NCBI RefSeq assembly: GCF_048261205.1
Contig: NZ_JBLXGF010000004.1
From: Hoeflea sp.
Lineage (GTDB): Bacteria; Pseudomonadota; Alphaproteobacteria; Rhizobiales; Rhizobiaceae
Direction: 5' to 3' (one strand)
Length of the DNA stretch: 64,000 nt
The notes below the pieces were generated by a model. It was given only the letters and a program-made list of their open reading frames with translations. It searched no databases and was not told where the DNA came from. This document shows, piece after piece, positions 10,123-63,402 of this stretch. How positions within the stretch are numbered: the first letter of the stretch is position 1; each line of letters starts with the position of its first letter. The position numbers and the translations under genes are program-made.

Positions 10123-11678
10123 TTGTAGATGAAGCCGACAACGCCGTGGTAGCGGCCCGGTGGCAGATCGGTTTCCATCCGGCCGTAGACCCGGTTGACG
10201 CGGCCAAGAAAGAAACCGGCGCCATCGCTGGCTGCATTGAAGTTGTCATCGGGGCGGGCGATTTCGTTGCGCGCCACAGGCTTGACGATATAGGGCGTGG
10301 CAATGATGACCAGCTCGGTTTCGTTACGGACAAAATCCCTGCTGCGGAAAAGCGTGCCGAAAACCGGCACTTTGGAGAGCCCTGGATAACCCGACATGGC
10401 CTGGCGGATGTCGTCCTTGACCAGCCCGGCCAGCACAATCGATCCCCCGGAGGGCAGTTCCACAGCAGTCTCGGCCTCACGGCGCTTGATCGAAAGCCGG
10501 GTCAAGCCGGAATTGCGGCCCGCGCCCTGAAGTGAGGTTGAGCCTTCGAATGTGGGCTCGGATACTTCCGTCAGGATCTTGAGTGAAATGCGTCCCGGTG
10601 AGAGGACCACCGGCGTGAAGTTCAGCCGGATACCATATTCGACTTCGCGGTCGGTGTATGATGGAGGAGTCGTGGCGTCACCCGGATCGTATTCATCGCG
10701 GAGCTGGAATTCGCCACCGACATAGAACTTGGCGCTTTCGCCCGAAATCGCCGTCAGACTCGGCTCGGCCAGGGTGCGCATGACACCGGCCTGTTCCATG
10801 GCATTGACATAACTGGCGATCGAACGGCCGCCGATCGAACCTGCCAGCGCGGCATAGTTCAAGCCGGTGCTCAGCGAGCCCAAATTGGCCGGGTTGGAAT
10901 TGACAAATGCGGATGAAGCGCCGGTGATGCTGGAATTGAACCCAAGCTGCTTGAGCACCTGGCGGCTGACTTCGGCAATGGTGATCTTCAGTGTCACCTG
11001 ATCCTCGCCGTCAATCTTCAGCAGGTTGACGATCTTAGACTTCTGGCGGGCTTCCGCATAAATCGCCACGGCGCCTTCGCCACCGGTGCCGCTGCTTTCG
11101 GTGATGTTGCGTGTTGTTGCCTCACCACCGGTAAGGAAGATCTGCGCCAGATTCGCGGCTTGCGCGGCGTCCTGCGGTGTCCGCACAGAGCCAGTCAGAA
11201 CGATGTTGTCGGAGATGATTTCAACATTGATGTCCGAATCGGGAAGGAAGCGGGCGAGATGGGCCTGAAGACCCGAGACATCGCGTTCAATCTCCAGCTC
11301 GATGGCGACAATTTCCTCGCCGTTTGGTCCAAAAATGAAGATATTGGTCTGACCCACGGTCTTTCCAAAAAGATAGAGCCTGCGGGATGTCCGGGTGACC
11401 GCATCGGCCAGGCTGGGATCGGCGACCAGAATGTCATGCGCGTCGGTGGGCAGATCGATCACAAGCGCCTTGTTCAAGCCGAGCTTCACCCGCTTACTGA
11501 CGCCGGGACCGGTGCGCTTGATCTTGATGACGCTTTCAGCGGCGGCTGCAGACGACATGATCCGGCCGCTGGATGGATCCACACTCATTCCGGCAAACAT
11601 GGTCGAGCTCACCAGCGCGATACTGGTGATGGATGACAGGAGCGATTTTGCAAATGGACGCACGTTCATTCTCCGCAT
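10119..11678 (-). CDS. cpaC: Pilus secretin CpaC/RcpA
   Basis: LAEPSLTAISGESAKFYVGGE and VPVFGTLFRS...ETELVIIATP secretin motifs. Confidence 0.95.
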   Translation of the reverse strand: MRRMNVRPFAKSLLSSITSIALVSSTMFAGMSVDPSSGRIMSSAAAAESVIKIKRTGPGVSKRVKLGLNKALVIDLPTDAHDILVADPSLADAVTRTSRRLYLFGKTVGQTNIFIFGPNGEEIVAIELEIERDVSGLQAHLARFLPDSDINVEIISDNIVLTGSVRTPQDAAQAANLAQIFLTGGEATTRNITESSGTGGEGAVAIYAEARQKSKIVNLLKIDGEDQVTLKITIAEVSRQVLKQLGFNSSITGASSAFVNSNPANLGSLSTGLNYAALAGSIGGRSIASYVNAMEQAGVMRTLAEPSLTAISGESAKFYVGGEFQLRDEYDPGDATTPPSYTDREVEYGIRLNFTPVVLSPGRISLKILTEVSEPTFEGSTSLQGAGRNSGLTRLSIKRREAETAVELPSGGSIVLAGLVKDDIRQAMSGYPGLSKVPVFGTLFRSRDFVRNETELVIIATPYIVKPVARNEIARPDDNFNAASDGAGFFLGRVNRVYGRMETDLPPGRYHGVVGFIYK

Positions 11679-30011: not shown

Positions 30012-30845
30012 TCAGCTATCGCCCGGTAGATAGCGGACGAAGGCAAACCGGCTGCCATCGGGCGACCAACAGGGCACATTGATGGTGCCCTGACCGCCAA
30101 ACAGCGCCAGCAGCGTGCGGACCGAGCCGTCTGCCGTATCGAGCAACCGCAGTTCCACATCACGATCGCGCGGGTGCCCCTCGGTTCCGGGCTGATAGCT
30201 GAGATAAAGCACCGACCTGCCATCGGGGGCGGGATGCGGAAACCAGTTGACCCGGTCGTCATCGGTCATCCGCTCAGGAGCGCCGCCAGCGACTGGCACC
30301 CGCCACAGATCCATGCTGCCACCGCGGTCGGAATTGAACCAGATCCAGGCGCCATCGGGCGAATAATCCGGACCGTCATAATGGCCACCGCCGCTGACAA
30401 GGTGCTGTTCGACACCCCCTTCCACGCCGATCGTGTAGATGCCGAACCCACCCTCGCGGCGGCCGACATAGGCGAGCGTGCTGCCGTCAGGCGACCAGCC
30501 GTGCCACCAAGACGGAACCTCGGCGGTGACACGGCGCGGAGTGCCGCCGGCACTTGGCAGAACCCAGATGCAGGATTGTCCGGTACCGGTGGAATTGCTG
30601 ATCACCAGCTGTCTGCCATCGGGCGAGATGCCGTGGTCATTGTTGCAATTGACCGCGTGGTCGGTGTCAATTGCAACAAGCTCCGGCATATCGAGCGGAA
30701 CCCGGAACATGCGGCCATCGCCGTTGACGATCAGGGATGCGTTGTCGGGCGTCCAGTTCGGCGCCTCGATGAGGCGCGGAGTCGCCAGGACCTCCTGCAC
30801 CTTTCCGGTGGCAAGCTCATAGATGCAAAGCTGGCTGCGCATCAT
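30012..30845 (-). CDS. TolB-like PD40 beta-propeller protein, no signal peptide
   Basis: Repeated WTPD/ISPD/WSPD/YSPD/PAPD/WSPD blades. Confidence 0.85.
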   Translation of the reverse strand: MMRSQLCIYELATGKVQEVLATPRLIEAPNWTPDNASLIVNGDGRMFRVPLDMPELVAIDTDHAVNCNNDHGISPDGRQLVISNSTGTGQSCIWVLPSAGGTPRRVTAEVPSWWHGWSPDGSTLAYVGRREGGFGIYTIGVEGGVEQHLVSGGGHYDGPDYSPDGAWIWFNSDRGGSMDLWRVPVAGGAPERMTDDDRVNWFPHPAPDGRSVLYLSYQPGTEGHPRDRDVELRLLDTADGSVRTLLALFGGQGTINVPCWSPDGSRFAFVRYLPGDS

Positions 30846-51830: not shown

Positions 51831-52379
51831 TCACCGGAAATGCGATGAATCCAAAAGCGAGGCAGCGCCATCGAGTTCCTCGCGCAGACGATGCCAGCGA
51901 CGGTCGAGATAGACCAGCGAACGCGCCTCCGGGCGCTCCTCGTCGGGCCGCACCTCGCCTGCCAACAACTCGGCCGCGACGATCGTCGCGCCTTCGATTG
52001 GCAAGACCCCGAGCCGGCGGGCACGGAACCAGCTGGCGACGCCGGTGTAGCGCGGCTCGCCCGTGGGAAGCCGCTCCCAGTCCCCTCCCGGCGGGAAGCG
52101 GTCCGCGCCACTCGACGCGCAGAGCTGCGCCAGGTCGATGTCATCATAGCGCAGCAGGTGAATCACCATGGTCTCGGCCCGCAGCAACGGTTCGGACGAG
52201 CCCGACTTCATCGAAAGGGAAAAGGCGACGATTGGCGGCGCGGCGCTTACAGAGATCAGCGAGGAAACGGTCATCGCCACCGGACGGTCGCCGGGATCGG
52301 CCGTGATCACCGCAACGCCAGCGGGATGGCGGCGAAAGGCTTCGCGGAAATGTTCGGTCATCGGATGCGGCAGGCTCAT
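51831..52379 (-). CDS. Flavin reductase (HpaC-like)
   Basis: FREAFRRHPAGVAVIT, MTVSSLISVSAAPP, LVYLDRRW. Confidence 0.9.
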   Translation of the reverse strand: MSLPHPMTEHFREAFRRHPAGVAVITADPGDRPVAMTVSSLISVSAAPPIVAFSLSMKSGSSEPLLRAETMVIHLLRYDDIDLAQLCASSGADRFPPGGDWERLPTGEPRYTGVASWFRARRLGVLPIEGATIVAAELLAGEVRPDEERPEARSLVYLDRRWHRLREELDGAASLLDSSHFR

Positions 52380-52440
52380 CGATATATCTCTTCCAAGTCA
52401 TGAGAGGAGGCAGGGCGGCATTCACCGCCCTGCCTTCGGA

Positions 52441-53661
52441 CTACTTCTTTTCGATCAGGTCGTAGAATTGCCAAACACGATCGCTCCACAGGCCGCCAAT
52501 TTCGCGACCCGCAGAGGTGACGATCGAGGGCGCGATGGTGAAGTGGTTCGCGGCGACCAGCATCTCGCGGTAGGTCCGCTGCATCACACCGGCGCGCAGC
52601 GACATCCCGCCGGCGGCGCGATAAGCGAAGTTGCAGACATCGACACCGACCTCGTGAATCTCGGACTTTGCCAGGTGAACGAGGCTGATCTGGCGGGTTG
52701 AGACACTGTGGCCGGCCTCGACGGAGGCCTCGATATCACGCCATGTCTCGAAGACGAAAGCGCGGGCGGCGCGGTAACGGGCCTCGGCACGACCGTAGTC
52801 GAACCAGAACTTCTCGCTCTCGCCGAGCATGCCGGCGCGGCCTGACTTCGAACGCGCGAACTTGGCAATCTCGTCGAGCATCCGCCGTCCCGTGCCCAGT
52901 GCCCAGCCGGTGTGGCCGATAGCGGCGAGCCCGACGACGCCGAGACTGAAGAATTCCTTCTGGCGCAGGGGCGGGGCGGTCTGGATCGGGAAGACAAGAT
53001 CATCAGCGATGAAGACGTCCTCGGCCGCATAGTCGATGCTGCCGGTACCACCGAGGCCCAGCACGTCCCAGTTGCCGAGCTGCTTGTGCTCGGAGACGGG
53101 CGCATGAGTGGCCATGATGATGGCGTTGCCGTTTTCGTCGGTCGCGGGCTTGCCGGTTCCGTCATCAACGAAGGCAGCACTGTGGGTATAGGTGGCGTGG
53201 CTGAAGCCGCTGCCATAGCTCCATTTGCCGGTCAGCCGGTAACCGCCATCGACCTTTTTCAACATTCCGAGCGGAGCACCCTGGCCGGAGAAGCGGTTGT
53301 CAGTCCCCGGCCCAAAAAGGCGTTCGACGGCGCTGTCGGGCAGGAAGGCCGCCGACATTGCGCCGATGCAGCAATGCACCATCGAAACCCAGCCCGCCGA
53401 TCCCGAATGCCAGGTGATCGCCTCAATCAGTTCCAGCCCCTGGGTCGGAGGCAGTTGCGCGCCACCGAGATTTTCCGACGCAAAAATATGCGACATCCGC
53501 AGCGGCTTCAACGCTTCGAAGGTGGACGCTGTCAGTTCGCCCTTCTCTTCATCGGCCGCGGCGTTGGCTTCCAGAAGCGGTCCAATCTCCGCGATCGTCT
53601 TGAGCATGTCCTTATAGTCAATACTGGTGCCCCAATAGGGGTGCTTCATGGGCTTGTTCAT
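52441..53661 (-). CDS. Two-component flavin-dependent monooxygenase, oxygenase subunit (acyl-CoA dehydrogenase fold, group D)
   Basis: GSAGWV, GYRLTGKWSYGSG, WDVLGLGGTGS.D, MQRTYREM; adjacent flavin reductase. Confidence 0.88.
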   Translation of the reverse strand: MNKPMKHPYWGTSIDYKDMLKTIAEIGPLLEANAAADEEKGELTASTFEALKPLRMSHIFASENLGGAQLPPTQGLELIEAITWHSGSAGWVSMVHCCIGAMSAAFLPDSAVERLFGPGTDNRFSGQGAPLGMLKKVDGGYRLTGKWSYGSGFSHATYTHSAAFVDDGTGKPATDENGNAIIMATHAPVSEHKQLGNWDVLGLGGTGSIDYAAEDVFIADDLVFPIQTAPPLRQKEFFSLGVVGLAAIGHTGWALGTGRRMLDEIAKFARSKSGRAGMLGESEKFWFDYGRAEARYRAARAFVFETWRDIEASVEAGHSVSTRQISLVHLAKSEIHEVGVDVCNFAYRAAGGMSLRAGVMQRTYREMLVAANHFTIAPSIVTSAGREIGGLWSDRVWQFYDLIEKK

Positions 53662-53684
53662 TGTGATTCCTCCTCAAATTGCGT

Positions 53685-54473
53685 TCAGCCGGCGAGAAAG
53701 TCGCCGATCTTGGTGAGCGTTTCTGGCTTTTCCTGCAGTACGAAATGGCCGGCGTCCTCGACCAGGATCAGCCGCGCATCGGGCAGCGCCTCAATCCAGA
53801 GCGGAGCCTGGCTGGCTGGCAGCAGACGGTCCTGCGTGCCCCAGACGACAAGAGTCGGGTTGGTATTCCGCGCCAGGAAATGGCGCAGGTTGGGATGGCC
53901 CATGCCGAAGGGCGTAAGCAGACGGCCGAGCGTCTCGCCTTCCCGGGCGCGATCGGCACCGAAGGCCTCTGCGAAGGCGGCGTCCGATCCGTCAGGGAAA
54001 TAGCGCAATGCGACAGCGACATCATGCGCCAGATATCCGGGCAGATCCTGAGGCGCGACCTCGCCCAGATTGGTAGCTGGATGAGCCGGATCGTTCAGGC
54101 CGGCGGGCGCAATCAGCACGATCTTATCAAACCGCTCGCGCGCGACGGCCGCCAGTTCGGTGGCCATCCACCCGCCCATGGAAAAGCCGATGAGATGCGG
54201 CTTCTGATCGAGATCCAGCGCGTCAAGCAGGTTCAAATAGTGCAGCACCATGTCGGACATGCCTGCCACGTGCGGCGCGTCGCCCGAGAAACCGAAGCCG
54301 GGGTGGCTGGCGCAGAGGACGCGGAAGCGGTCGGCCAGGCCTTCTGCGAAATCAAAGCCTTCAAGCGTCGAAGCGCCGTGCAGAAACAGCACTGGCTTGC
54401 CTTGTCCGATGGCTTTGACCACCGTTTTCGTCCCGTCGATATCGTATTCAAGCGTTTCGAACTGAACGGCCAT
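53685..54473 (-). CDS. Alpha/beta hydrolase
   Basis: VLFLHG, GFSMGG nucleophile elbow, WGTQDRL, DAGHF; AGGAGG RBS before MAVQF. Confidence 0.9.
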   Translation of the reverse strand: MAVQFETLEYDIDGTKTVVKAIGQGKPVLFLHGASTLEGFDFAEGLADRFRVLCASHPGFGFSGDAPHVAGMSDMVLHYLNLLDALDLDQKPHLIGFSMGGWMATELAAVARERFDKIVLIAPAGLNDPAHPATNLGEVAPQDLPGYLAHDVAVALRYFPDGSDAAFAEAFGADRAREGETLGRLLTPFGMGHPNLRHFLARNTNPTLVVWGTQDRLLPASQAPLWIEALPDARLILVEDAGHFVLQEKPETLTKIGDFLAG

Positions 54474-54486
54474 TTCTGTTTCCTCC

Positions 54487-55503
54487 TCAGGCATGTGCCG
54501 GCTGGATCAATACCTTGCACTGCGTGGTGCGGTGGCGAAGGCTCTCGAAGATCTGCGGAACCGGCGAAAGATCGATTCGGTCTGTAATCAACGCTTGCGG
54601 CGCAAACGGGCCACCTCGCAGGGCATCGAGCGCCACGCCGAATTCGTTGCGTTGGTGGAAGAACACGGAAAAGAGCAGGTTCACTTCCTTGGTCAGCGCG
54701 ACAAACGGGTCCCATTCGTCGCCGCCGACGCAGAGGCCGACACCAACGACGGTGCCCTGCAGCCGGACAGCGCCGACAGCCGCCGCAATCAGGCCGCGCT
54801 TGCCGACGCATTCGAAGACGATATCCGGCGCTCCGCCACAGGCATCGGCGAGGTTTTCGGTCAGCCTGTCGCCGGAAAGAGCGAAGCCGGTTGCGCCGAG
54901 TGCGAAGGCCCGGTCGCGTTGATGGTCGTGAAGATCGGCCACGACCACACAGGATGCCCCCATCCGCCGGGCCCAGAAGGCAACGAGAAGCCCGATCGGT
55001 CCCGCGCCCAGGATCGCCACCCGGTCCCCTGGCTTCATGCCGGATCGGATGATGCAATGCAGCGCGACCGAGAGTGGCTCGGCCAGGGCGCCGTCCTCGA
55101 GCGCCACTTCGTCCGGCAGGATATGGCATTGCCGGGCGGCGACGGTCACGTATTCGGCATAGCCGCCGCCGATCAGGACCATCTCGGGACAGCGGCCGGG
55201 GTCGCCCCGTCTGCAGGCTTCGCAATGCCCGCAGCCGCGCATTGGCACGACGGCCACACGGTCTCCAACGCCAAGACCGGTCACCTCCGTTCCGACCGCG
55301 ACGATGTCGCCTGCAAATTCGTGACCAAGAACGAAACCGCCCGCGATCCCGAAGGGGACTGGGTCCTCGGTGATGTGGAGGTCGCTGCCGCAAATGCCGC
55401 AGGCGGCAACGCGTAACACAACCTCATCTGGCGCGGGCGCCGGCTCGGGCATCATACCGATCCGCAGCGGACTGCCGACACTGTCAAAGATAACTGCTTT
55501 CAC
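54487..55503 (-). CDS. Zinc-dependent alcohol dehydrogenase (MDR)
   Basis: CGICGSDLH, LGHEFAG, CGHCEAC...C, GAGPIG. Confidence 0.92.
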   Translation of the reverse strand: MKAVIFDSVGSPLRIGMMPEPAPAPDEVVLRVAACGICGSDLHITEDPVPFGIAGGFVLGHEFAGDIVAVGTEVTGLGVGDRVAVVPMRGCGHCEACRRGDPGRCPEMVLIGGGYAEYVTVAARQCHILPDEVALEDGALAEPLSVALHCIIRSGMKPGDRVAILGAGPIGLLVAFWARRMGASCVVVADLHDHQRDRAFALGATGFALSGDRLTENLADACGGAPDIVFECVGKRGLIAAAVGAVRLQGTVVGVGLCVGGDEWDPFVALTKEVNLLFSVFFHQRNEFGVALDALRGGPFAPQALITDRIDLSPVPQIFESLRHRTTQCKVLIQPAHA

Positions 55504-55516
55504 GGAAACCTCCTTC

Positions 55517-56542
55517 TCAGCGGTTTGGGTCGAGGAGCTTGCGCCTGATCGGGAACCAGGGCGCGTCCCATCGCTTCGAAGCCAGCCCCCAGATGCCGCT
55601 TCGAGCGTAAAGCGCCACGAGCAGTGTCATCAGGCCGAGAACGACGAAATAGGTTGCGCCATACTCACCGAACCAACGGTCCGCAATGAAGTAGATCAGC
55701 GACCCGATCAGGACGCCTTCGATTGACCCGATGCCGCCGATCATGACGATGAAGATCACGATATTCGTCCACATCGGATCGAAGGCCGAGCCCGGGGTTA
55801 TCCTGAGCTGGGCCATGAAGTAGATCGCGCCGGCAAGGCCGCAGCCGACCGCCGATGCGACATAAACGAGGAAGCGCAGCTTGGCGACGTTGACGCCCTG
55901 ACTGGCCGCCGCGATGGGATTGTCGCGCATGGCGATCAGCGCGAGGCCAAAGCGCGAGCGCAGCAGCCAGTAGCTGCCGCCCAGCGTGACAATGAGCATC
56001 ATCGTGCAGAGCAGCGACATGGCGACATTGCGCTCAAACAGCGAATAGTCCTTCATCACGCGGAGCGACATACCGGCACCGGAATTGACCAGCGGCAGGT
56101 TCGATGCAATCAGCCGGAAGACCTCTGCCAACACCCATGTTCCAATCGCGAAATACGGACCGTCCAGACGGTGAAGCAGCAAGTACATCGGCACGGCCAG
56201 CACTGCCGGCACCAGCAGAGAAAGGAAGACCGCCATGAAGGGATTGATGCCGTAGGTCTGGGCCAGAACGAACAACGCATAGCCCGACGCGCCCATGAAG
56301 GCATGCTGGCCGACGGAGACCAGGCCGGCATAGCCGGCGAGCAGATTCCACATCTGAGCGACTGCGATATAGCAGCACAGAATGAGAACCGACCGGATCG
56401 TTCCAGTCGAGGCCCACCACGGCATGGCGGCCAATGCCAGCAACGCCAGCACTGCCAGCGTCATCGCGATGCGGCCCGACCGCGTCTGGCGCTGGACGGT
56501 GACCTCGGGCAATGCGATTTCGGCATAGGGGACTGCGCTCAT
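55517..56542 (-). CDS. Branched-chain-type ABC permease (LivM-like)
   Basis: WNLLAGYAGLVSVGQ, GPYFAIGT, IAMRDNP. Confidence 0.92.
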   Translation of the reverse strand: MSAVPYAEIALPEVTVQRQTRSGRIAMTLAVLALLALAAMPWWASTGTIRSVLILCCYIAVAQMWNLLAGYAGLVSVGQHAFMGASGYALFVLAQTYGINPFMAVFLSLLVPAVLAVPMYLLLHRLDGPYFAIGTWVLAEVFRLIASNLPLVNSGAGMSLRVMKDYSLFERNVAMSLLCTMMLIVTLGGSYWLLRSRFGLALIAMRDNPIAAASQGVNVAKLRFLVYVASAVGCGLAGAIYFMAQLRITPGSAFDPMWTNIVIFIVMIGGIGSIEGVLIGSLIYFIADRWFGEYGATYFVVLGLMTLLVALYARSGIWGLASKRWDAPWFPIRRKLLDPNR

Positions 56543-57402
56543 GATAACGCCTTTCCGAACAGGCCCTGCGGGCGGGTCGCCAGCACGATCAGGAAAACAA
56601 GATGTCCGGCGAGAACGCCGAAACCAGGGTCGATGCGGAAGCCGATCGCCTGCGAAATTCCGAGCACCATCGAGCCGATGAAGGCGCCCCAGACGGAGCC
56701 CATGCCGCCGATGATCACGGCCTCGAAGGCATAGATCAGCTGGGCAGGTCCGTCAGCCGGTGCAACGGTCGAGCGCAGCGCCTGGAAGACCGCTGCAAAG
56801 CCGAGGATACCGACCGCAACCGCTGTTGCCATTGCATAGACGGCGCGGGTGTTGATGCCGGTCATCGCCGCCGCCTCGACATCGGCCGACGCGGCACGAA
56901 GCGCCCGGCCGAAGCGGGTGCGCTTCAACACCAGATCGAGGCCTCCGGTCAATCCCGTGGCAACCGCGAGCACGATCAGCGGGAGCAAGCCGATATAAAT
57001 GCCACCGATCTCGATGGATTGGCTCTCGATTCCCTGGCCGGGCAGCGAACGGCTGTTGGCAGACCAGATCTGCAGCATCAGGTTCTGCAGCGCGATCGAC
57101 AGCCCGAATGTCGCGATCAGCGAGGGCAACGGATCATCGCCCACCACCTTGTTCAGCACGGCCTTTTGCAGGACCCATCCCATCATCACCGCGAGTGGCA
57201 CCAATATGATGAGCACAGGAAGCGGTCCGAGACCCCAGGCCATCGCGATCGAAATGCCGATCAGCGACAGCAGAATCACCAGATCGCCATGGCTGATGTT
57301 CACGATCCGCATCACCCCGAACATCAACGCCATACCGAGTGCATATTGGGCATACATACCGCCCAGCAGTACCCCCTGAACCAATGCGTCAAACCACACC
57401 AT
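56539..57402 (-). CDS. Branched-chain-type ABC permease (LivH-like)
   Basis: FGVMRIVNISHG, TRFGRALRA, IIGGMGS; start set at MVWFD. Confidence 0.92.
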   Translation of the reverse strand: MVWFDALVQGVLLGGMYAQYALGMALMFGVMRIVNISHGDLVILLSLIGISIAMAWGLGPLPVLIILVPLAVMMGWVLQKAVLNKVVGDDPLPSLIATFGLSIALQNLMLQIWSANSRSLPGQGIESQSIEIGGIYIGLLPLIVLAVATGLTGGLDLVLKRTRFGRALRAASADVEAAAMTGINTRAVYAMATAVAVGILGFAAVFQALRSTVAPADGPAQLIYAFEAVIIGGMGSVWGAFIGSMVLGISQAIGFRIDPGFGVLAGHLVFLIVLATRPQGLFGKALS

Positions 57403-58117
57403 GGCTGGCTCCAAAATAAGCTTCACCGATTTGCTCGCGGGTGACGTCAGCGGATCTGCCTGTCAGCGTCACTCGCCCCTCAAGCATGCAGTAGAGACGG
57501 TCGGTTGCCGACTGCGCCAGGCCCACATCTTGTTCGACCAGGATCACCGCCGTCCCGGTTGCCCGGATCTCGGGCAAGGCAGCGTAGATCTCGCGGATTA
57601 CCTTGGGCGCCAGGCCGAGACTGATCTCGTCGCACAGCAGTACACGCGGCTGGCAGAGCAAGGCACGGCCGATGGACACCATCTGCTGTTGTCCGCCCGA
57701 GAGGCTCTGCACTTCCGTGCGGGCCTTTTCCTTGAGGATCGGGAACAGCTGGTACAACCGCTCGAGCGTCCACCCGCCTTTGGTGCCCATGCGCGCGGCC
57801 TGATCGATGGCGACGCGCAAATTGTCCTCGACCGACATGCCGGTGAAGAGACGGCGGCCCTCGGGCACGATCGCAACCCCCTTCTGCACCATGCGGTCCG
57901 TGGCCGCGCCCCCGATGGGCTCGCCGTCGAGCCAGACCATCTCGCGCGCCACCGGCAAGAGGCCCATGATGGCGCGCAGAAAGGTGGATTTCCCTGCCCC
58001 GTTCGCACCGATCAGGGCGACGGCCTCGCCCTGATGCAGCTCGGTGTCGACACCGTAGAGCGCCTGAAAATCCCCATAGCGGGCGATGAGCCCCCGGGTG
58101 GAAAGAATGGCCGTCAT
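57389..58117 (-). CDS. ABC ATP-binding protein (LivF-like)
   Basis: GANGAGKST, VPEGRRLF, LSGGQQQM, DEISLGLAP. Confidence 0.93.
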   Translation of the reverse strand: MTAILSTRGLIARYGDFQALYGVDTELHQGEAVALIGANGAGKSTFLRAIMGLLPVAREMVWLDGEPIGGAATDRMVQKGVAIVPEGRRLFTGMSVEDNLRVAIDQAARMGTKGGWTLERLYQLFPILKEKARTEVQSLSGGQQQMVSIGRALLCQPRVLLCDEISLGLAPKVIREIYAALPEIRATGTAVILVEQDVGLAQSATDRLYCMLEGRVTLTGRSADVTREQIGEAYFGASHGVV

Positions 58118-58842
58118 GCCTCGATCCCCATGTAAACCCGCTGCACCTCGGGCAGCGCAATGACTTCGGCCGGCACGCCATCGGCGATCATTTCGCCGAA
58201 ATTCAGCACGATCAGCCGATCGGCGACCGCAAGCAGCGCGTGCAGCACATGCTCGATCCAGACAACGGTGACACCACGGTCACGGATGCGCCGCACCAGC
58301 GCCACCAGCGCCTTCGATTCATCGTCGGTCAGCCCACCCGCGATTTCGTCCAGAAGCAGCAGCTTCGGATCCGAGGCCAGCGCGCGCGCCAGTTCCAGCC
58401 GTTTGCGGTCGAGCAATGTCAGAGCGCCTGCAGAAACATTGGCCTTGTCGGAGAGCTCGCAATCGCGCAGCACCTGGGCGCAAAAGGCATAGCTCTGCTT
58501 CTCGGACCGGCCGCCGCCGAAAGCGGCGGCGACCAGCAGGTTCTCGAAAGTGGTCATGCCGGAATAGGGACGCGGGATCTGATAGGTCCGCCCGATTCCC
58601 ATCTGGCAGCGCCTGAACGGCGGCTCACGACGCAACAACGTGTCGCCGAGCTGGATCTCACCGCCCGAGGCACTCAGATCGCCGCTGATCATATTGAACA
58701 GCGTCGTCTTGCCCGCGCCGTTCGGGCCGAGAATGCCGAGCACCTCGCCCCGGTTTACGTCGAAACTCACGTCGTGCAGGACGCGAACGGCGCCGAAGGA
58801 CTTCGACACACCGCGCGCTTTCAGCAGGATTTCTCTGTCCAT
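58114..58842 (-). CDS. ABC ATP-binding protein (LivG-like)
   Basis: GPNGAGKTT, LLLDEIAGGL, IEH; start set at MDREI. Confidence 0.93.
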   Translation of the reverse strand: MDREILLKARGVSKSFGAVRVLHDVSFDVNRGEVLGILGPNGAGKTTLFNMISGDLSASGGEIQLGDTLLRREPPFRRCQMGIGRTYQIPRPYSGMTTFENLLVAAAFGGGRSEKQSYAFCAQVLRDCELSDKANVSAGALTLLDRKRLELARALASDPKLLLLDEIAGGLTDDESKALVALVRRIRDRGVTVVWIEHVLHALLAVADRLIVLNFGEMIADGVPAEVIALPEVQRVYMGIEA

Positions 58843-58867
58843 CACTTTGTCCGCGTCCTGTCTCGTA

Positions 58868-60178
58868 TCACCAGGTGATCGGCACAATGGCCTGTTCAGG
58901 CGCGAAGAGCTGATTGACCGTGTTGTCAACGATCTTCAGATCATAGGGCCACTTCTCGCCCTTCACCCACTGGCCGCCAAAGATCGGCGTCTTGCAGACA
59001 TTCTTGTGGGTCGAACCGTCGAACTTGATATTGCCGACCAGCGTCTGCAGATCTGTGGCGGCCATCGCGTCGCGGTTTGCCGTGCGGTCGAGCGGATCGG
59101 ACGAGCGCTTCAGGATATCCAGGGCAACCTCTAGCAGCGCATGCGAATAACCCAGCGGCTGTGTCCACTGGCGGTTGGTATCGGTTTCCCACTGATTGGC
59201 AATGTCGCTGCTGACCTCGCCGGTCAGCGACGACTTGAACGGGAAAGCCGGTGTCCACCAGACCTCCGAGGACATGCCATTGCCAAGCGGCCCCATGGCT
59301 TCCACGCCACCGGGGAACAGCAACGCCGCCGCGACCGTCACTGCCTTTGGCTTGAAGCCCTGCTGGTTGCACTGGGTGATGAAGGTCTTGAGATCGTCCG
59401 GATAGGTGATGCCGCCGATGATCTCGCAGTTCTGGTTCTTGAACTCGGCGATCTGCGCCGAGAAGTCATTGGTGCGCGGCTGGAAATAGCCGGGTACCAC
59501 CACCTCGTAGCCCGCAGCGCGGGTCGGCACCGGCAGGCCGTAATCGTCGTTGCCCCAGGTCTCGCCGTCGATGTTCTGGGGGAACAGCATGCCGACCTTC
59601 TTGTTGCTATCGAGGCCCTTCCACAGACCGACAAAGGTGTTGAGCGCCTCATCGAGGCCCCAGAAGAAGTGATAGGTCCAGTCGAAAGACGCCTCGGCTC
59701 CGCCGCGCGGCATGACCACCGCTTGCCAGGGCGCACCCGACGAGATGCAGGGGGTCTCGTAGAGCTCCGCCTGCTCGGCGGCGGGCAGAATGGTGTCGGT
59801 GGTCGACGCCGGAACCAGCAGATGGACTTCGTCATTGAGGATGAGATCGCCCGCGATTTCCGCTGATTTGTTCGGATTTGACTGGCTGTCGCGATCGAGG
59901 ATCTCGATTTCGTAGGTCTTGCCATTGTCACATTGCAGTTGACCGCCGAGCAGAGTGCGGATCTTCTCCAAAGTGTAGCCGTCGGTTTCACCGAACAGGG
60001 CAAGCGGGCCGGTGGTGGGGCTGATATAGCCGATCTTGATCTTGCCCGCAGTGGCTGCGCGCGCGTAGCCGGGCAAGGCAAGCGTGCTGACCGCAGCGCT
60101 GGCTCCAAGCCCCTTGAGCACGGTCCGGCGACTGGGGTTCAGGCCCGCTTTCACCAGCTTGTTGTTGATGTTGGTCAT
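58868..60178 (-). CDS. Tat-exported ABC substrate-binding protein (Leu/Ile/Val-binding fold)
   Basis: Twin-arginine SRRTVLK, KIGYISPTTGPLA, DSQSNPN. Confidence 0.9.
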   Translation of the reverse strand: MTNINNKLVKAGLNPSRRTVLKGLGASAAVSTLALPGYARAATAGKIKIGYISPTTGPLALFGETDGYTLEKIRTLLGGQLQCDNGKTYEIEILDRDSQSNPNKSAEIAGDLILNDEVHLLVPASTTDTILPAAEQAELYETPCISSGAPWQAVVMPRGGAEASFDWTYHFFWGLDEALNTFVGLWKGLDSNKKVGMLFPQNIDGETWGNDDYGLPVPTRAAGYEVVVPGYFQPRTNDFSAQIAEFKNQNCEIIGGITYPDDLKTFITQCNQQGFKPKAVTVAAALLFPGGVEAMGPLGNGMSSEVWWTPAFPFKSSLTGEVSSDIANQWETDTNRQWTQPLGYSHALLEVALDILKRSSDPLDRTANRDAMAATDLQTLVGNIKFDGSTHKNVCKTPIFGGQWVKGEKWPYDLKIVDNTVNQLFAPEQAIVPITW

Positions 60179-60252
60179 TGTCGTTTCCTCCCGTTGATAA
60201 GCTGTATCCGGCCCTGCCTCCTCTACAGAGCCGGCCTCACTTCGAAACGTCT

Positions 60253-61071
60253 TCAGGTCATCCGCAGCAGTGCACCTCCATCGATGACGATCTGCGCGCC
60301 CGTCACGTAGGACGAGGCAGGCGAGGCCAGATAAAGTGCCAGGCCTTTGATTTCTTCCGGATCGCCGATCCGGCCGATCAGCGACTGGTCCTCGAAGGCC
60401 TTGCGGTCCGCCGGATTGCGCAACCGGCCGCCGGCGATGTTGGTGATGAACGGACCAGGCAGGATGGCGTTGATGCGGATGTTGTATGCCCCGAGCTCCA
60501 TCGCCATGTGGCGAACCAGATGGTTCACCGCGGCCTTTGCGGGCATGTAAGGCGTGCCAACGATGCTCTCGTTGATCAGCGAGGCGATAGACGATGTGAC
60601 GATGATCTGGCCGCCGCCATTGGGCTTCATGTGCCGGACAGCGTGTTTGATCGTGGTGTAGACCGAGGTCAGGTTGATTTCGATCACCTTGTCCCAGTGT
60701 TCGTCGGACAGGTTCTCAATGGCGCCCTCGGGATTACGCTCGCCCGTCGGGGTGTTGAAGCCAGGCCCGGCGTCGATCCCAGCATTGGCGAACACCACAT
60801 CGATCGCGCCCGCCTTTTCGGCCACCTTGTCAAAGGCCTCCGCCATGGCTGCGCGGTCGCCCACGTCGACAAGCAAGCCCCAGACATCGCCGCCCGCGGC
60901 GCTGATCTCGGCGACGGTTTTCTCCAGCCCTGCAGGATTCAGATCGAAAATGCAGACCCTGGCTCCGTGCTCGGCCATGATCTCGGCATAGGCCTGACCA
61001 ATTCCGCTGGCGCCGCCGGTGACGATCACCGACTTGCCTCGGACATCGAACATTTTTTCAAGCGCGGCCAT
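60253..61071 (-). CDS. Short-chain dehydrogenase/reductase
   Basis: TGGASGIG, FANAG, TSS, YMPAK, INAILPG. Confidence 0.93.
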   Translation of the reverse strand: MAALEKMFDVRGKSVIVTGGASGIGQAYAEIMAEHGARVCIFDLNPAGLEKTVAEISAAGGDVWGLLVDVGDRAAMAEAFDKVAEKAGAIDVVFANAGIDAGPGFNTPTGERNPEGAIENLSDEHWDKVIEINLTSVYTTIKHAVRHMKPNGGGQIIVTSSIASLINESIVGTPYMPAKAAVNHLVRHMAMELGAYNIRINAILPGPFITNIAGGRLRNPADRKAFEDQSLIGRIGDPEEIKGLALYLASPASSYVTGAQIVIDGGALLRMT

Positions 61072-61202
61072 CAGTTTCCTCCTGCTTCCCTAACACCAAC
61101 CTGTGCACAAGCGCCCCCGGAAGCCCTGCAGCGCAGGGTCACTTCGTCTTTCACGACACCGCAATCCCGGCCTTCGTGGCGGCAGCCGCTGCTACGAGCC
61201 AT
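61071..61202 (-). CDS. Small 43-aa ORF or gene relic between the dioxygenase and the SDR
   Basis: AAGGAGA RBS 6 nt before ATG; stop overlaps the SDR start (TGATG); MARSSGCRHEGRDCGVVKDEVTLRCRASGGACAQVGVREAGGN. Confidence 0.3.
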   Translation of the reverse strand: MARSSGCRHEGRDCGVVKDEVTLRCRASGGACAQVGVREAGGN

Positions 61203-62103
61203 CGGTTGTCTCCTTGCCGGACATTCCGGTTTCATTCGGCTGTTGCGGGCAGAGAACAAGGTCGAGCTCGAGCGCATGCTGCCGTTTCTTGCCATTGAGC
61301 GGAAGCGCGCGGAACTCAGCCAGGAGTTCGGGCTTGACGCCGAAAATGGCATCCCGGCCGATCGCAGGGTCCAATTGGTCAAAAATGTGGGTCGTCAGCG
61401 TCTCGAAGCCCTCGGCTGAAACGCGAAAATGAATATGGGCCGGCCGCTCCAGGCCAAGGCCGAGCGTCGACATCAGCTGACCGACCGGCCCGTCGGAAGG
61501 AAGCGCGTAGCCCTTCGGCTTGACTGTCAAGAAATGGAACCGTCCCTGCGGATCGGCACGGAACCGTCCGCGCAGATTGAATTCCGGCTGACGATCCGGT
61601 TCCTGGTTCTCGTAAAGACCCTCGGCATTGGCATGCCAGACCTCAACAATCGCCCCACCGATCCCTGCGCCGTCGAGCGCGACGATCCGGCCCGAAACTT
61701 CCAGCGGCTCACCCTTGGCATCGCGCGAGATGTTTGCGCCGAGTGGCATTTCCGGCGCGTCGGCGCGGTAGAAAGGTCCGGCGACCGTGTTTGGCGTGGC
61801 TCCAACGGGGCGCGGGCTGTTCTGATCCTCGATCAGCGAGGACACGCCGAGAACATCGACGAACAAGACCCATTCCTGCCGCCGCGCATCCGCGTAATGG
61901 CCAACCTCGGTCAGGAAGTCGATCACCAGCCTGAATTCCTCTCCCGTGGGTTGAAGCTCGGCAACCAGCGTGTGCAGTCCATCGACGATCGTTCGCGCGG
62001 CCGCCGTCAGGCGGGACTGATCAGCTGCCGCAAGACGCCTCGAGAACTCCTTGGCTTGGGCGGAGATGTGCTGGGTGAGTTCATCCCTTTGCTTATCCTC
62101 CAT
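61192..62103 (-). CDS. Intradiol ring-cleavage dioxygenase (hydroxyquinol/catechol 1,2-dioxygenase-like)
   Basis: GPFY, VWHANAEGLY (Tyr ligand), KGYALPSDGPVG (Tyr ligand), RPAHIHF (two His ligands); start set at MEDKQ. Confidence 0.9.
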   Translation of the reverse strand: MEDKQRDELTQHISAQAKEFSRRLAAADQSRLTAAARTIVDGLHTLVAELQPTGEEFRLVIDFLTEVGHYADARRQEWVLFVDVLGVSSLIEDQNSPRPVGATPNTVAGPFYRADAPEMPLGANISRDAKGEPLEVSGRIVALDGAGIGGAIVEVWHANAEGLYENQEPDRQPEFNLRGRFRADPQGRFHFLTVKPKGYALPSDGPVGQLMSTLGLGLERPAHIHFRVSAEGFETLTTHIFDQLDPAIGRDAIFGVKPELLAEFRALPLNGKKRQHALELDLVLCPQQPNETGMSGKETTDGS

Positions 62104-62183
62104 CGCTCCAGGGCCTCCACTCCCCTTGCCAATTGGGATAGCACGGCCCGATGCGATTCTTGATGAGTTGTGGGATCGCCTGT

Positions 62184-62198
62184 ATAGCAAATTGCTAT
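62184..62198. promoter_or_regulatory. LysR T-N11-A palindrome
   Basis: ATAGCAA-A-TTGCTAT, overlapping the LysR start codon. Confidence 0.75.
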
Positions 62199-63147
62199 GA
62201 AGCTGAACGAGCACCACTTGATGCAACTCGCCGCGGTGCTGGACGCCGGGGGTGTCACGGAAGGAGCCGCCATGCTGGGCATGACCCAGCCTGCGGTCAG
62301 CCGTTCGCTTTCCAAGCTGGAGGCGCGGGTCGGAGAACCGCTCTTCCTCAAGGGCCGCCGTCCGCTACAGGCGACACCGCTCGGCGAACAACTGGCAGCG
62401 CAAGGACGCATGATCATCATCGCGTCGCGCAGGGCCTCCGATGCCGTACAGGGCTTTGTGACCGGCACGAAGGGTGTCATCCGCGTCGGCGGCGTGCCCT
62501 TTTTCATGGATGCGATGATCAGCCGGATGATCGCGGAGTTCCAGAACTTCGAACCAGAGGTCACTGTGCAGCAAAGTTACCTCAACCAGCCCGAAATGAT
62601 CGCTGCGCTGCAGGGCAACCAGATCGATCTCGGCATCGTGCCGATCGGCACGCCCGATATCGGAGCGGGCTTTGAATTCACCGAAATCCTGCCCGGCCGC
62701 AATATCGTGGCTTGCCGGCCTGACCACCCTCTGCTGCGCAATCCCCGCCTCAAGGCACAAGACCTGGCCAGTTTTCCCTGGGTGGCCCCCCTGCCAGGTT
62801 CGCCGCTGATGTCGGACCTGCAAATGATCCTGATGAGCATCGGCATGTCGGACTTGAATGTCCGTTATTCAGGGGGCTCACTGATGAGCGTGATCAACTA
62901 TATTGCCGGGACCGACGCAATGGCGGTGCTGCCATTCTCCGTGGTTTTCGCGCAGCGCTACGAAAACCGGGTGACCGTGCTTCCTTATGAAATCCCGCAA
63001 CCCAACCGTTCACTCGGCATCCTGCGCCGGGTTGGAGGGCCGCGCACGCCTGCGGCAGAGCGCTTCGCCAGCCACATCACGACCTCGTTCGACAATCTGA
63101 AGCACATCATCAAGCGGCATGAGAACGCCGTCGTCTGGGGCCGCTAA
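62197..63147 (+). CDS. LysR family transcriptional regulator
   Basis: GGVTEGAAMLGMTQPAVSRSLSKLE HTH; divergent from the dioxygenase operon. Confidence 0.95.
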   Translation: MKLNEHHLMQLAAVLDAGGVTEGAAMLGMTQPAVSRSLSKLEARVGEPLFLKGRRPLQATPLGEQLAAQGRMIIIASRRASDAVQGFVTGTKGVIRVGGVPFFMDAMISRMIAEFQNFEPEVTVQQSYLNQPEMIAALQGNQIDLGIVPIGTPDIGAGFEFTEILPGRNIVACRPDHPLLRNPRLKAQDLASFPWVAPLPGSPLMSDLQMILMSIGMSDLNVRYSGGSLMSVINYIAGTDAMAVLPFSVVFAQRYENRVTVLPYEIPQPNRSLGILRRVGGPRTPAAERFASHITTSFDNLKHIIKRHENAVVWGR

Positions 63148-63151
63148 AGCA

Positions 63152-63402
63152 TGGGCCGCCTGTCCGGAGTTCCAGGAATTGGTCCCCGCAATTCTGCGCA
63201 GTCTACCGCTTAAACCTCCATCCGCCTTATCGAGCCAAGACTGAGACGCCTTGCCCGCCTCGGCGACGGCATAACCGCGCGCATATTCGGGATACTGAAC
63301 GAACTCGCAAGTGAAGCCATTCAGGACGGCACAGAGCGCATTACCGATGAAGACATTGATTCCTGGAAGCCAGCCTTGGAAAAGGAGGCGGCTTTCGCAT
63401 AG
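63152..63402 (+). pseudogene. tniB: Frameshifted C-terminal remnant of a TniB/TnsC-like NTP-binding transposition protein
   Basis: WAACPEFQELVPAILRSLPLKPPSAL, frameshift near 63240, then LRRLARLGDGITARIFGILNELASEAIQDGTERITDEDIDSWKP...*; recognised by eye as TniB-like. Confidence 0.7.

Follow-up and report, generated by a model that had tools for sequence, protein, structure and literature searches.

We analysed a 64,000-nt stretch of DNA from Hoeflea sp. (contig NZ_JBLXGF010000004.1; hereafter the window), in which Pfam and NCBIfam searches identify 12 intact genes at positions 51831–63147, with 11 minus-strand genes facing one plus-strand lysR. This locus is very probably a deletion derivative of a hydroxyquinol island of ~21 genes that is widespread in Alphaproteobacteria, with maleylacetate reductase (MAR) supplied from a second locus. 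The initial annotation had described a LysR-controlled cluster for aromatic degradation with an uncharacterized substrate and enzyme set. Our results support the first part, with hydroxyquinol as the aromatic intermediate, and the second part also stands: the set of short-chain dehydrogenase/reductase (SDR), ABC importer, alcohol dehydrogenase (ADH), hydrolase, monooxygenase and flavin reductase matches none of the characterized pathways that we compared.

The full island occurs as one co-directional array in Mesorhizobium sp. LjNodule214 (L083), Kaistia nematophila (L090) and Prosthecomicrobium pneumaticum (L164). Headed by a LysR gene, its first half runs from the intradiol dioxygenase gene dio1 through a VOC-family dioxygenase, a carboxylesterase/dienelactone-hydrolase-like protein, MAR, binding protein 2, four importer genes and a FAD monooxygenase (a group A phenol monooxygenase) to a second intradiol dioxygenase, dio2. 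After dio2 come SDR, binding protein 1, importer 1, a Zn-dependent ADH (Zn-ADH), an alpha/beta hydrolase, a monooxygenase of the acyl-CoA dehydrogenase (ACAD) fold and a flavin reductase. Proteins from the window are 74–95% identical to their orthologues in these three arrays, with SDR 95% identical to the Mesorhizobium orthologue and LysR 84–87% identical to the regulators heading full islands (L164 and L163). The window lacks a block of ~10 kb, from the VOC gene to dio2, and has two remnants of it within the 120-nt interval between dio1 and sdr. The first remnant is 27 nt long (61202–61176, minus strand) and corresponds to the first nine codons of the VOC gene, reading ATGGCTCGTAGCAGCGGCTGCCGCCAC in the window and ATGGCACGAGTCAGCGGCTACCACCAC in L083; it aligns to the VOC gene following dio1 in L083, L164, L090, L081 and L165. 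The second, of ~37 nt (61175–61139, minus strand), directly adjoins the first, matches the 3' end of dio2 (its last ~12 codons and stop) and runs on into the dio2–sdr spacer of L083, L001, L090 and L004, followed by the sdr ribosome-binding site. The stop codon of dio1 is mutated, and reading extends five codons into the VOC remnant. Because an insertion in the relatives cannot leave remnants of both VOC and dio2 in the window, the window form is derived from the island by a deletion of ~10 kb. This event fused the VOC gene, through its ninth codon, to the last ~12 codons of dio2 and set the SDR-to-reductase module directly behind dio1 and its LysR-controlled promoter.

The same arrangement is found at 98.7–98.8% nucleotide identity in a marine metagenome contig from ENA (L177; 98.65% over 12.9 kb) and in a Logan contig (L178), both with the gene order of the window. 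It also occurs in contigs of four further public runs, which join position 714 of L083 to position 10963 and skip 10,248 nt. Because it recurs in all of these, the arrangement is not an assembly artefact.

We found no homologue of MAR, muconate cycloisomerase, VOC dioxygenase or FAD monooxygenase in the 64-kb window using tblastn, which confirms the absence of MAR and cycloisomerase reported by the initial annotation. In related islands the MAR is genuine (PDB 3W5S, E = 1e-145). It lies within the fetched locus in 40 of 79 related loci, and in a further 27 the FAD monooxygenase gene is cut at the locus edge, so that MAR would be expected a short way outside, where L083, L090 and L164 have it; with these expected cases included, 67 of 79 loci have MAR inside or immediately adjoining. 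In the four runs with the window-type junction, homologues of VOC and FAD monooxygenase are found on further contigs whose depth is close to that of the window-type contig (further contigs versus window-type contig: 612 versus 822, 6.7 versus 6.9, ~10.4 versus 11.5 and 7–8 versus 8.8). These equal-depth contigs have 80–85% nucleotide identity to L083 and also show homology to binding protein 2, with permease homology in runs X2 and X1. For X4, a run labelled as an organism rather than a metagenome, VOC and MAR homology occur together on one 2-kb contig (depth 6.7 versus 6.9), and in X2 there is a high-depth signal in the bins over the MAR gene. The equal-depth contigs listed for X1 and X5 cover VOC, binding protein 2 and FAD monooxygenase, not MAR. 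Together, these matches suggest that a second locus in this genome probably encodes MAR, so that the missing gene would most likely reflect deletion with supply from another locus, and new chemistry is probably not needed for the gap.

The gene left at the head of the operon, dio1 (61192–62103, minus strand), encodes a 303-aa protein starting MEDKQ, with the same start called on L177. This protein is an intradiol dioxygenase of the hydroxyquinol type and is predicted to cleave hydroxyquinol to maleylacetate. Hydroxyquinol or chlorohydroxyquinol 1,2-dioxygenases fill the top five places among its PDB matches (E = 3.5e-62 to 4e-45), led by the 6-chlorohydroxyquinol 1,2-dioxygenase 8r2x (E = 3.5e-62), and catechol enzymes begin at E = 4e-39. 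It is also 52% identical to GraB of the gra cluster. In the comparison of hydroxyquinol and catechol dioxygenases proposed by the initial annotation, dio1 thus sides with the hydroxyquinol enzymes; the NCBIfam intradiol models (catechol and chlorocatechol 1,2-dioxygenase) match it at E = 1e-41 to 1e-46. The product on L177 contains the Pfam domains Dioxygenase_N and Dioxygenase_C, and the translation shows the Fe(III)-ligand motifs GLYENQ, KGYALP and HIH (2-Tyr/2-His). We rejected the possibility of a dio1/dio2 recombinant, as the protein is a full-length dio1 orthologue that is 83% identical to dio1 of L083 and 74% to that of L164 but only ~50% identical to dio2. A 344-aa dioxygenase open reading frame that overlaps lysR was dismissed as an ORF-calling artefact, the real start being at 62103, as on L177.

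The regulator gene (62197–63147, plus strand) is divergent from the 11 minus-strand genes, in line with the initial annotation. Its product matches LysR-family models in NCBIfam, with PcaQ as the best match (E = 1.5e-32, below cut-off), and on L177 it contains the Pfam domains HTH_1 and LysR_substrate. A LysR-type T-N11-A palindrome, ATAGCAAATTGCTAT (62184–62198), of which the 64-kb window has a single copy, abuts the lysR start codon and lies ~81–95 nt upstream of the start of dio1. In L164, L163, L081 and L177 it is conserved in the equivalent position as ATAGCA-N3-TGCTAT, and in more distant islands it is degenerate (ATA-N9-TAT). These features are consistent with a LysR-regulated divergent catabolic cluster with a predicted T-N11-A site.

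Co-transcription of dio1 and the module behind it is plausible. The minus-strand genes overlap or lie 13–74 nt apart, save for the 120-nt interval between dio1 and sdr; starts and stops of the importer genes (55517–58842) overlap or abut, and the flavin reductase gene is 61 nt downstream of the oxygenase gene. Terminator-like sites show no excess over chance (11 observed, 8.5 expected). RNA-type contigs from two runs map over the genes and bridge the SDR–binding protein and binding protein–ATPase junctions. Across the 12 genes, the window and L177, both of which bear the deletion, differ by 126 synonymous and 15 non-synonymous changes (pN/pS = 0.04); the genes have thus been under purifying selection since the deletion, and the cluster is probably still functional. 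Between the scar and the sdr ribosome-binding site, there is also a GC-rich palindrome without a T-tail (CCCTGCGCTGCAGGGC, 61123–61138), and the spacer between dio2 and sdr in L083 contains a similar one. The palindrome might act in processing or attenuation or belong to an internal promoter region.

All gene families named in the initial annotation are present and intact, and the protein features give some indication of their roles. The monooxygenase (52441–53661, minus strand; 406 aa) matches PF08028 Acyl-CoA_dh_2 and PF00441 and has Rv3094c as its best PDB match (E = 1.8e-31). With its NAD(P)H:flavin partner, the flavin reductase (51831–52379, minus strand; Pfam Flavin_Reduct PF01613, E = 4.9e-27), it is predicted to form a two-component group D (ACAD-fold) flavin monooxygenase. 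No orthology emerged from the comparison with GraA, HsaA and HpaH that had been suggested earlier: identity to GraA is 29%, and the scores are 94 bits for HsaA against an NCBIfam cut-off of 450 and 67 bits for C2-HpaH against a cut-off of 650. The reductase similarly reaches 29–57 bits with HsaB/C1-type reductase models that have cut-offs of 200–340.

The alpha/beta-fold serine hydrolase (53685–54473, minus strand; Pfam Abhydrolase_1, E = 3e-28) keeps the Ser-Asp-His triad (GFSMGG, QDR, GHF), and the NCBIfam models that align best with it over the full length are those of 3-oxoadipate enol-lactonase, with scores that fall far short of the cut-offs. In alignment, Asn113, Arg192 and Trp270 of HsaD, of which the first precedes the nucleophilic Ser and the last follows the catalytic His, correspond to Phe, Ala and Phe; with all three signature residues replaced, we rejected a meta-cleavage C–C hydrolase of the BphD/HsaD/MhpC type, and because these residues are absent an esterase or lactonase is more likely. 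The best PDB matches of Zn-ADH (54487–55503, minus strand; Pfam ADH_N and ADH_zinc_N) are ketose reductase, butanediol dehydrogenase and sorbitol dehydrogenase (E = 1e-46 to 1e-42). It keeps the catalytic and structural Zn ligands and an Asp after beta-2 (VVVADL), and its features place it in the predicted polyol/secondary-alcohol dehydrogenase subfamily. The classical SDR (60253–61071, minus strand; Pfam adh_short_C2, E = 8.6e-61) has the motifs TGGASGIG and YxxxK, an Asp at the end of beta-2 (VCIFDL) and no specific NCBIfam equivalog above cut-off. An Asp after beta-2 of a Rossmann fold is associated with the use of NAD+, and the motifs point to both enzymes being NAD-type and alcohol-oxidizing.

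The importer comprises a cluster-B, Liv-type periplasmic binding protein (58868–60178; Pfam Peripla_BP_6, E = 4.9e-35), two permeases (55517–56542 and 56539–57402; Pfam BPD_transp_2) and two ATPases (57389–58117 and 58114–58842; Pfam ABC_tran), all on the minus strand, and is thus a complete Liv-type (HAAT) set. The initial annotation had called it Tat-exported (twin-arginine translocation) as well as Liv-type. The Liv type is borne out by Pfam, and a twin-arginine leader is present (SRRTVLKG) but scores slightly under the gathering score of Pfam TAT_signal (20.3 versus 22.7 bits); export of the binding protein by Tat is likely. The binding protein has no close solved relative (best PDB match 4q6w, E = 7e-6), and it is 44% identical to binding protein 2 of the second importer of the full island, which suggests that the two importers may bind related ligands.

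To place the module in a wider context, we compared related loci and found monooxygenase orthologues, 65–90% identical, in 79 species-level alphaproteobacterial loci, including Mesorhizobium, Kaistia, Paracoccus, Tabrizicola, Rhizobium and Martelella. The SDR–importer–ADH–hydrolase–monooxygenase–reductase module is complete and syntenic in 64 of them, hydrolase and monooxygenase occur together in 77, and an intradiol dioxygenase lies within 10 kb in 66. The hydrolase–monooxygenase–reductase trio is found inside hydroxyquinol operons in at least four different arrangements. On a plasmid of Martelella sp. AD-3, a second importer, dioxygenase, LysR, MAR and FAD monooxygenase come after the module; on a plasmid of Rhizobium sp. 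NZLR1, the same parts are split over three adjacent operons; and a plasmid of Agrobacterium tumefaciens LN-1 (L081) carries a compact operon, LysR|dio1–VOC–DLH–MAR–hydrolase–monooxygenase–reductase (DLH, dienelactone hydrolase), with no transporter. Such minimal clusters keep hydrolase, monooxygenase and MAR without SDR and ADH. Conversely, the base operon, LysR|dio1–MAR–Liv-type importer 2–FAD monooxygenase–dio2, stands alone in many Rhizobium and Mesorhizobium genomes, which makes the SDR-to-reductase block an accessory module.

Several further observations were made on these relatives. The compact version occupies 5421–21143 of L081 on the conjugative plasmid pLN1-233332 and is flanked by IS3 and ISL3 transposases. 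Stand-alone base operons were seen in L115–L162, for example in Rhizobium leguminosarum (L148) and Mesorhizobium sp. AR07 (L122), and the two intradiol dioxygenases of the base operon are 50–60% identical to each other. A Logan contig (L176, 2252–10751) contains a 5'-truncated hydrolase gene with monooxygenase and reductase at 93.9% nucleotide identity to window positions 54152–51717, flanked by a DctM gene and, at the opposite end, by another LysR|dioxygenase–VOC–DLH–MAR–binding protein island; this contig shows that the trio moves between contexts. Islands of the Paracoccus/Martelella type encode a 110-aa protein with the start MPNVKIF between dioxygenase and LysR (for example, L080 6873–7205). 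It is absent from the window and has no NCBIfam match at E <= 1e-10, and its Pro-1 start suggests a possible tautomerase.

Based on these results, we propose that the probably Tat-exported binding protein and its importer would take up a phenolic compound carrying secondary-alcohol and/or ester or lactone functions. The two NAD-type dehydrogenases would oxidize the alcohol function(s), and the serine hydrolase would open the ester or lactone, either before hydroxylation or on the hydroxylation product. Monooxygenase and reductase could then hydroxylate the resulting resorcinol- or hydroquinone-type phenol to hydroxyquinol, which dio1 would cleave to maleylacetate, and a canonical Fe-ADH-type MAR from the second locus of the same genome would reduce maleylacetate to 3-oxoadipate.

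A number of points weigh against this reading. We infer both the substrate and the sequence in which SDR, ADH, hydrolase and monooxygenase act; none of the module enzymes passes an NCBIfam equivalog cut-off, and the monooxygenase is only 29% identical to the single ACAD-fold resorcinol hydroxylase compared (GraA). The placement of MAR elsewhere in the genome is derived from contig depths in metagenome-like runs and patchy 80–85% matches, not from a closed genome, and MAR-gene matches were obtained in only two of the four runs (X4 and X2). Finally, no RNA-type contig from the two runs crosses the 120-nt dio1–sdr scar, and the GC-rich palindrome at 61123–61138 sits within this interval.

Among other interpretations of the module, a more specific but doubtful one is an undescribed peripheral pathway in which the ACAD-fold monooxygenase, as a new subfamily, and the hydrolase would strip the side chain from an acyl- or 1-hydroxyalkyl-phenol. 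The corresponding chemistry, to which we give an equally small chance, would have the dehydrogenases oxidize a benzylic alcohol, followed by ipso-hydroxylation or a formal Baeyer–Villiger reaction, after which the hydrolase would split the ester to hydroquinone or hydroxyquinol. If true, this would be chemistry not yet known for the ACAD flavoenzyme fold, in a module found in rhizobia and marine Rhodobacterales.

It is unlikely that the module is independent of hydroxyquinol cleavage and merely adjoins dio1, for example as a cyclohexanol-type route in which SDR converts an alcohol to a ketone, the monooxygenase forms a Baeyer–Villiger lactone, the hydrolase opens it and ADH oxidizes the omega-hydroxy acid. 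The enzymes ChnA, ChnB, ChnC and ChnD of the cyclohexanol pathway belong to classes that parallel those of the module, and this parallel, the membership of Zn-ADH in the polyol/secondary-alcohol subfamily and the many Rhizobium and Mesorhizobium genomes with a base operon but no module would all fit such a route. However, the trio is embedded in hydroxyquinol operons in several independent arrangements, among them a single operon on the Agrobacterium LN-1 plasmid where it directly follows MAR, and an intradiol dioxygenase is within 10 kb in 66 of 79 loci. The 44% identity of the two binding proteins, suggestive of related ligands, also argues against independence, and we know of no Baeyer–Villiger activity in ACAD-fold flavin monooxygenases.

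We consider it very unlikely that the locus forms a non-canonical route complete in itself, with the intradiol product handled by SDR, Zn-ADH and hydrolase instead of MAR or muconate cycloisomerase, as the initial annotation had offered in proposing that these enzymes replace the usual lower pathway. Such a route would account for 64 kb without MAR or cycloisomerase, for the enol-lactonase models among the best hydrolase alignments and for purifying selection on the genes that persists after the loss of MAR from the locus. Nonetheless, SDR, ADH and hydrolase are not expected to substitute for MAR, because the same enzymes share an array with it in most relatives (in or just beyond 67 of 79 loci), and minimal clusters drop SDR and ADH yet keep MAR, hydrolase and monooxygenase. 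The deletion scar provides a visible mechanical cause for the absence of MAR, MAR-gene homology is present in X4 and X2 at the depth of the window-type contig, and both dehydrogenases have NAD-type, alcohol-oxidizing signatures rather than features of enoate reductases.

Lastly, that the locus is the decaying, non-functional leftover of an island is extremely improbable: the 10-kb deletion did take seven whole genes and most of two more and shifted the dio1 stop, but all 12 open reading frames are intact, pN/pS between the two deletion-carrying lineages is 0.04, RNA-type contigs cover the locus in two runs and the same form is present in at least six samples.

The surroundings of the cluster differ between the contigs that carry it. 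Homology between the window and L177 ends at 63167, 20 nt past the lysR stop, which places the cluster at a rearrangement boundary. Beyond lysR, L177 (1–2552) carries ffh and chorismate mutase genes, and the window and L178 carry ~600 nt without a Pfam match followed by the start of a molybdopterin oxidoreductase gene (Fe4S4 domain from ~63780). A candidate transposition-protein remnant downstream of lysR was dropped, as it had no Pfam support. On the other side, window positions 30842–51679 contain unrelated genes for a GH43 beta-xylosidase, an aldo-keto reductase, a GFO/IDH/MocA oxidoreductase, sugar and peptide ABC systems, a gamma-glutamyltransferase (GGT) and an M20 peptidase; a MalK-type ATPase and peptide- and sugar-type binding proteins are also encoded in the window. 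The peptide/GGT/M20 block has 73–75% nucleotide identity to Sulfitobacter plasmids. At 58687–58740, every run mapped to the region showed depth spikes of 10- to 80-fold with many loose ends. This is a mapping artefact and not a repeat, because the conserved nucleotide-binding motif of the ABC ATPase collects contigs from unrelated ATPases.

These results illustrate that a 'missing enzyme' in a catabolic cluster may stem from a recent deletion rather than from new chemistry, a question settled here by a 64-nt scar and comparative loci. They also reveal a ten-gene uptake-and-activation module that is conserved beside hydroxyquinol genes in Alphaproteobacteria of plant-associated, wastewater and marine origin, spanning at least 64 species-level genomes. 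Once identified, the substrate of this module would extend the hydroxyquinol branch of the 3-oxoadipate pathway by a peripheral route, and a new group D flavin monooxygenase subfamily would gain an assigned function.

Finally, we compared the locus to known systems. The gra cluster of Rhizobium sp. MTP-10005, which serves gamma-resorcylate and resorcinol, was recovered in A. tumefaciens ATCC 4720 (L179) via PDB 3W5S and checked with 2DVT; there, GraC shares 99% identity with 3W5S, and the match of GraF to 2DVT has E = 1e-229. Like the window, gra has a two-component ACAD-fold monooxygenase and flavin reductase feeding a hydroxyquinol 1,2-dioxygenase. The window differs in lacking the decarboxylase and MAR, in its additional SDR, ADH, hydrolase and ABC importer and in gene context, and the gra regulator GraR is of the MarR type, unlike the LysR of the window. 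Orthology to GraA and GraD was rejected, with the monooxygenase 29% identical to GraA over the N-terminal 243 of 406 residues only and the reductase 30% identical to GraD.

Classical resorcinol and hydroxyquinol pathways, such as those of Corynebacterium glutamicum and Rhodococcus jostii (tsd), use a single-component FAD hydroxylase, a hydroxyquinol dioxygenase and MAR. This is the composition of the deleted block and of the stand-alone rhizobial base operon; the window keeps the dioxygenase step but lacks the FAD hydroxylase and MAR, and its own hydroxylase is two-component. The tcp, tft, had and npc routes for chlorophenols and nitrophenols combine a two-component monooxygenase, a (chloro)hydroxyquinol dioxygenase and MAR. 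They share with the window the logic of a reduced-flavin hydroxylase and separate reductase that make a hydroxyquinol for intradiol cleavage, and among solved structures the closest to dio1 is that of a 6-chlorohydroxyquinol dioxygenase. However, these routes use HpaB-type oxygenases of ~500 aa in place of the ACAD fold and have no SDR, ADH, hydrolase or ABC importer.

In the hcd pathway for 7-hydroxycoumarin in Pseudomonas mandelii 7HK4, a Zn-ADH-family enzyme and lactone opening likewise ready a resorcinol-type intermediate for hydroxylation and ring cleavage (PMC7913881, PMC6222606). HcdE uses NADPH only, and the set further comprises a chorismate-mutase-like protein, a cupin, an FMN reductase, a single-component hydroxylase, an extradiol dioxygenase and a meta-cleavage hydrolase (PMC7913881, PMC6222606). 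We rejected hcd as the route encoded here and regard it as a loose analogy, given the NAD-type motif of the window ADH and the different gene sets. The iif indole operon, which combines a hydrolase-fold oxygenase, an SDR and a two-component monooxygenase, was rejected as non-homologous, IifC being StyA-like and IifA belonging to the DLH family. A literature search returned nothing relevant on this gene combination, on Martelella or Agrobacterium LN-1 work or on rhizobial hydroxyquinol genes. Overall, the locus works like the two-component gra, tcp and tft systems and is a member of none of those families. Its closest relative is the uncharacterized ~21-gene island, which has the same LysR, dio1, SDR, importer, ADH, hydrolase, monooxygenase and reductase genes in the same order and orientation, with the same LysR box, and differs in retaining the VOC-to-dio2 block of which the window keeps only 27-nt and 37-nt remnants; the locus thus belongs to the hydroxyquinol branch of the 3-oxoadipate pathway.

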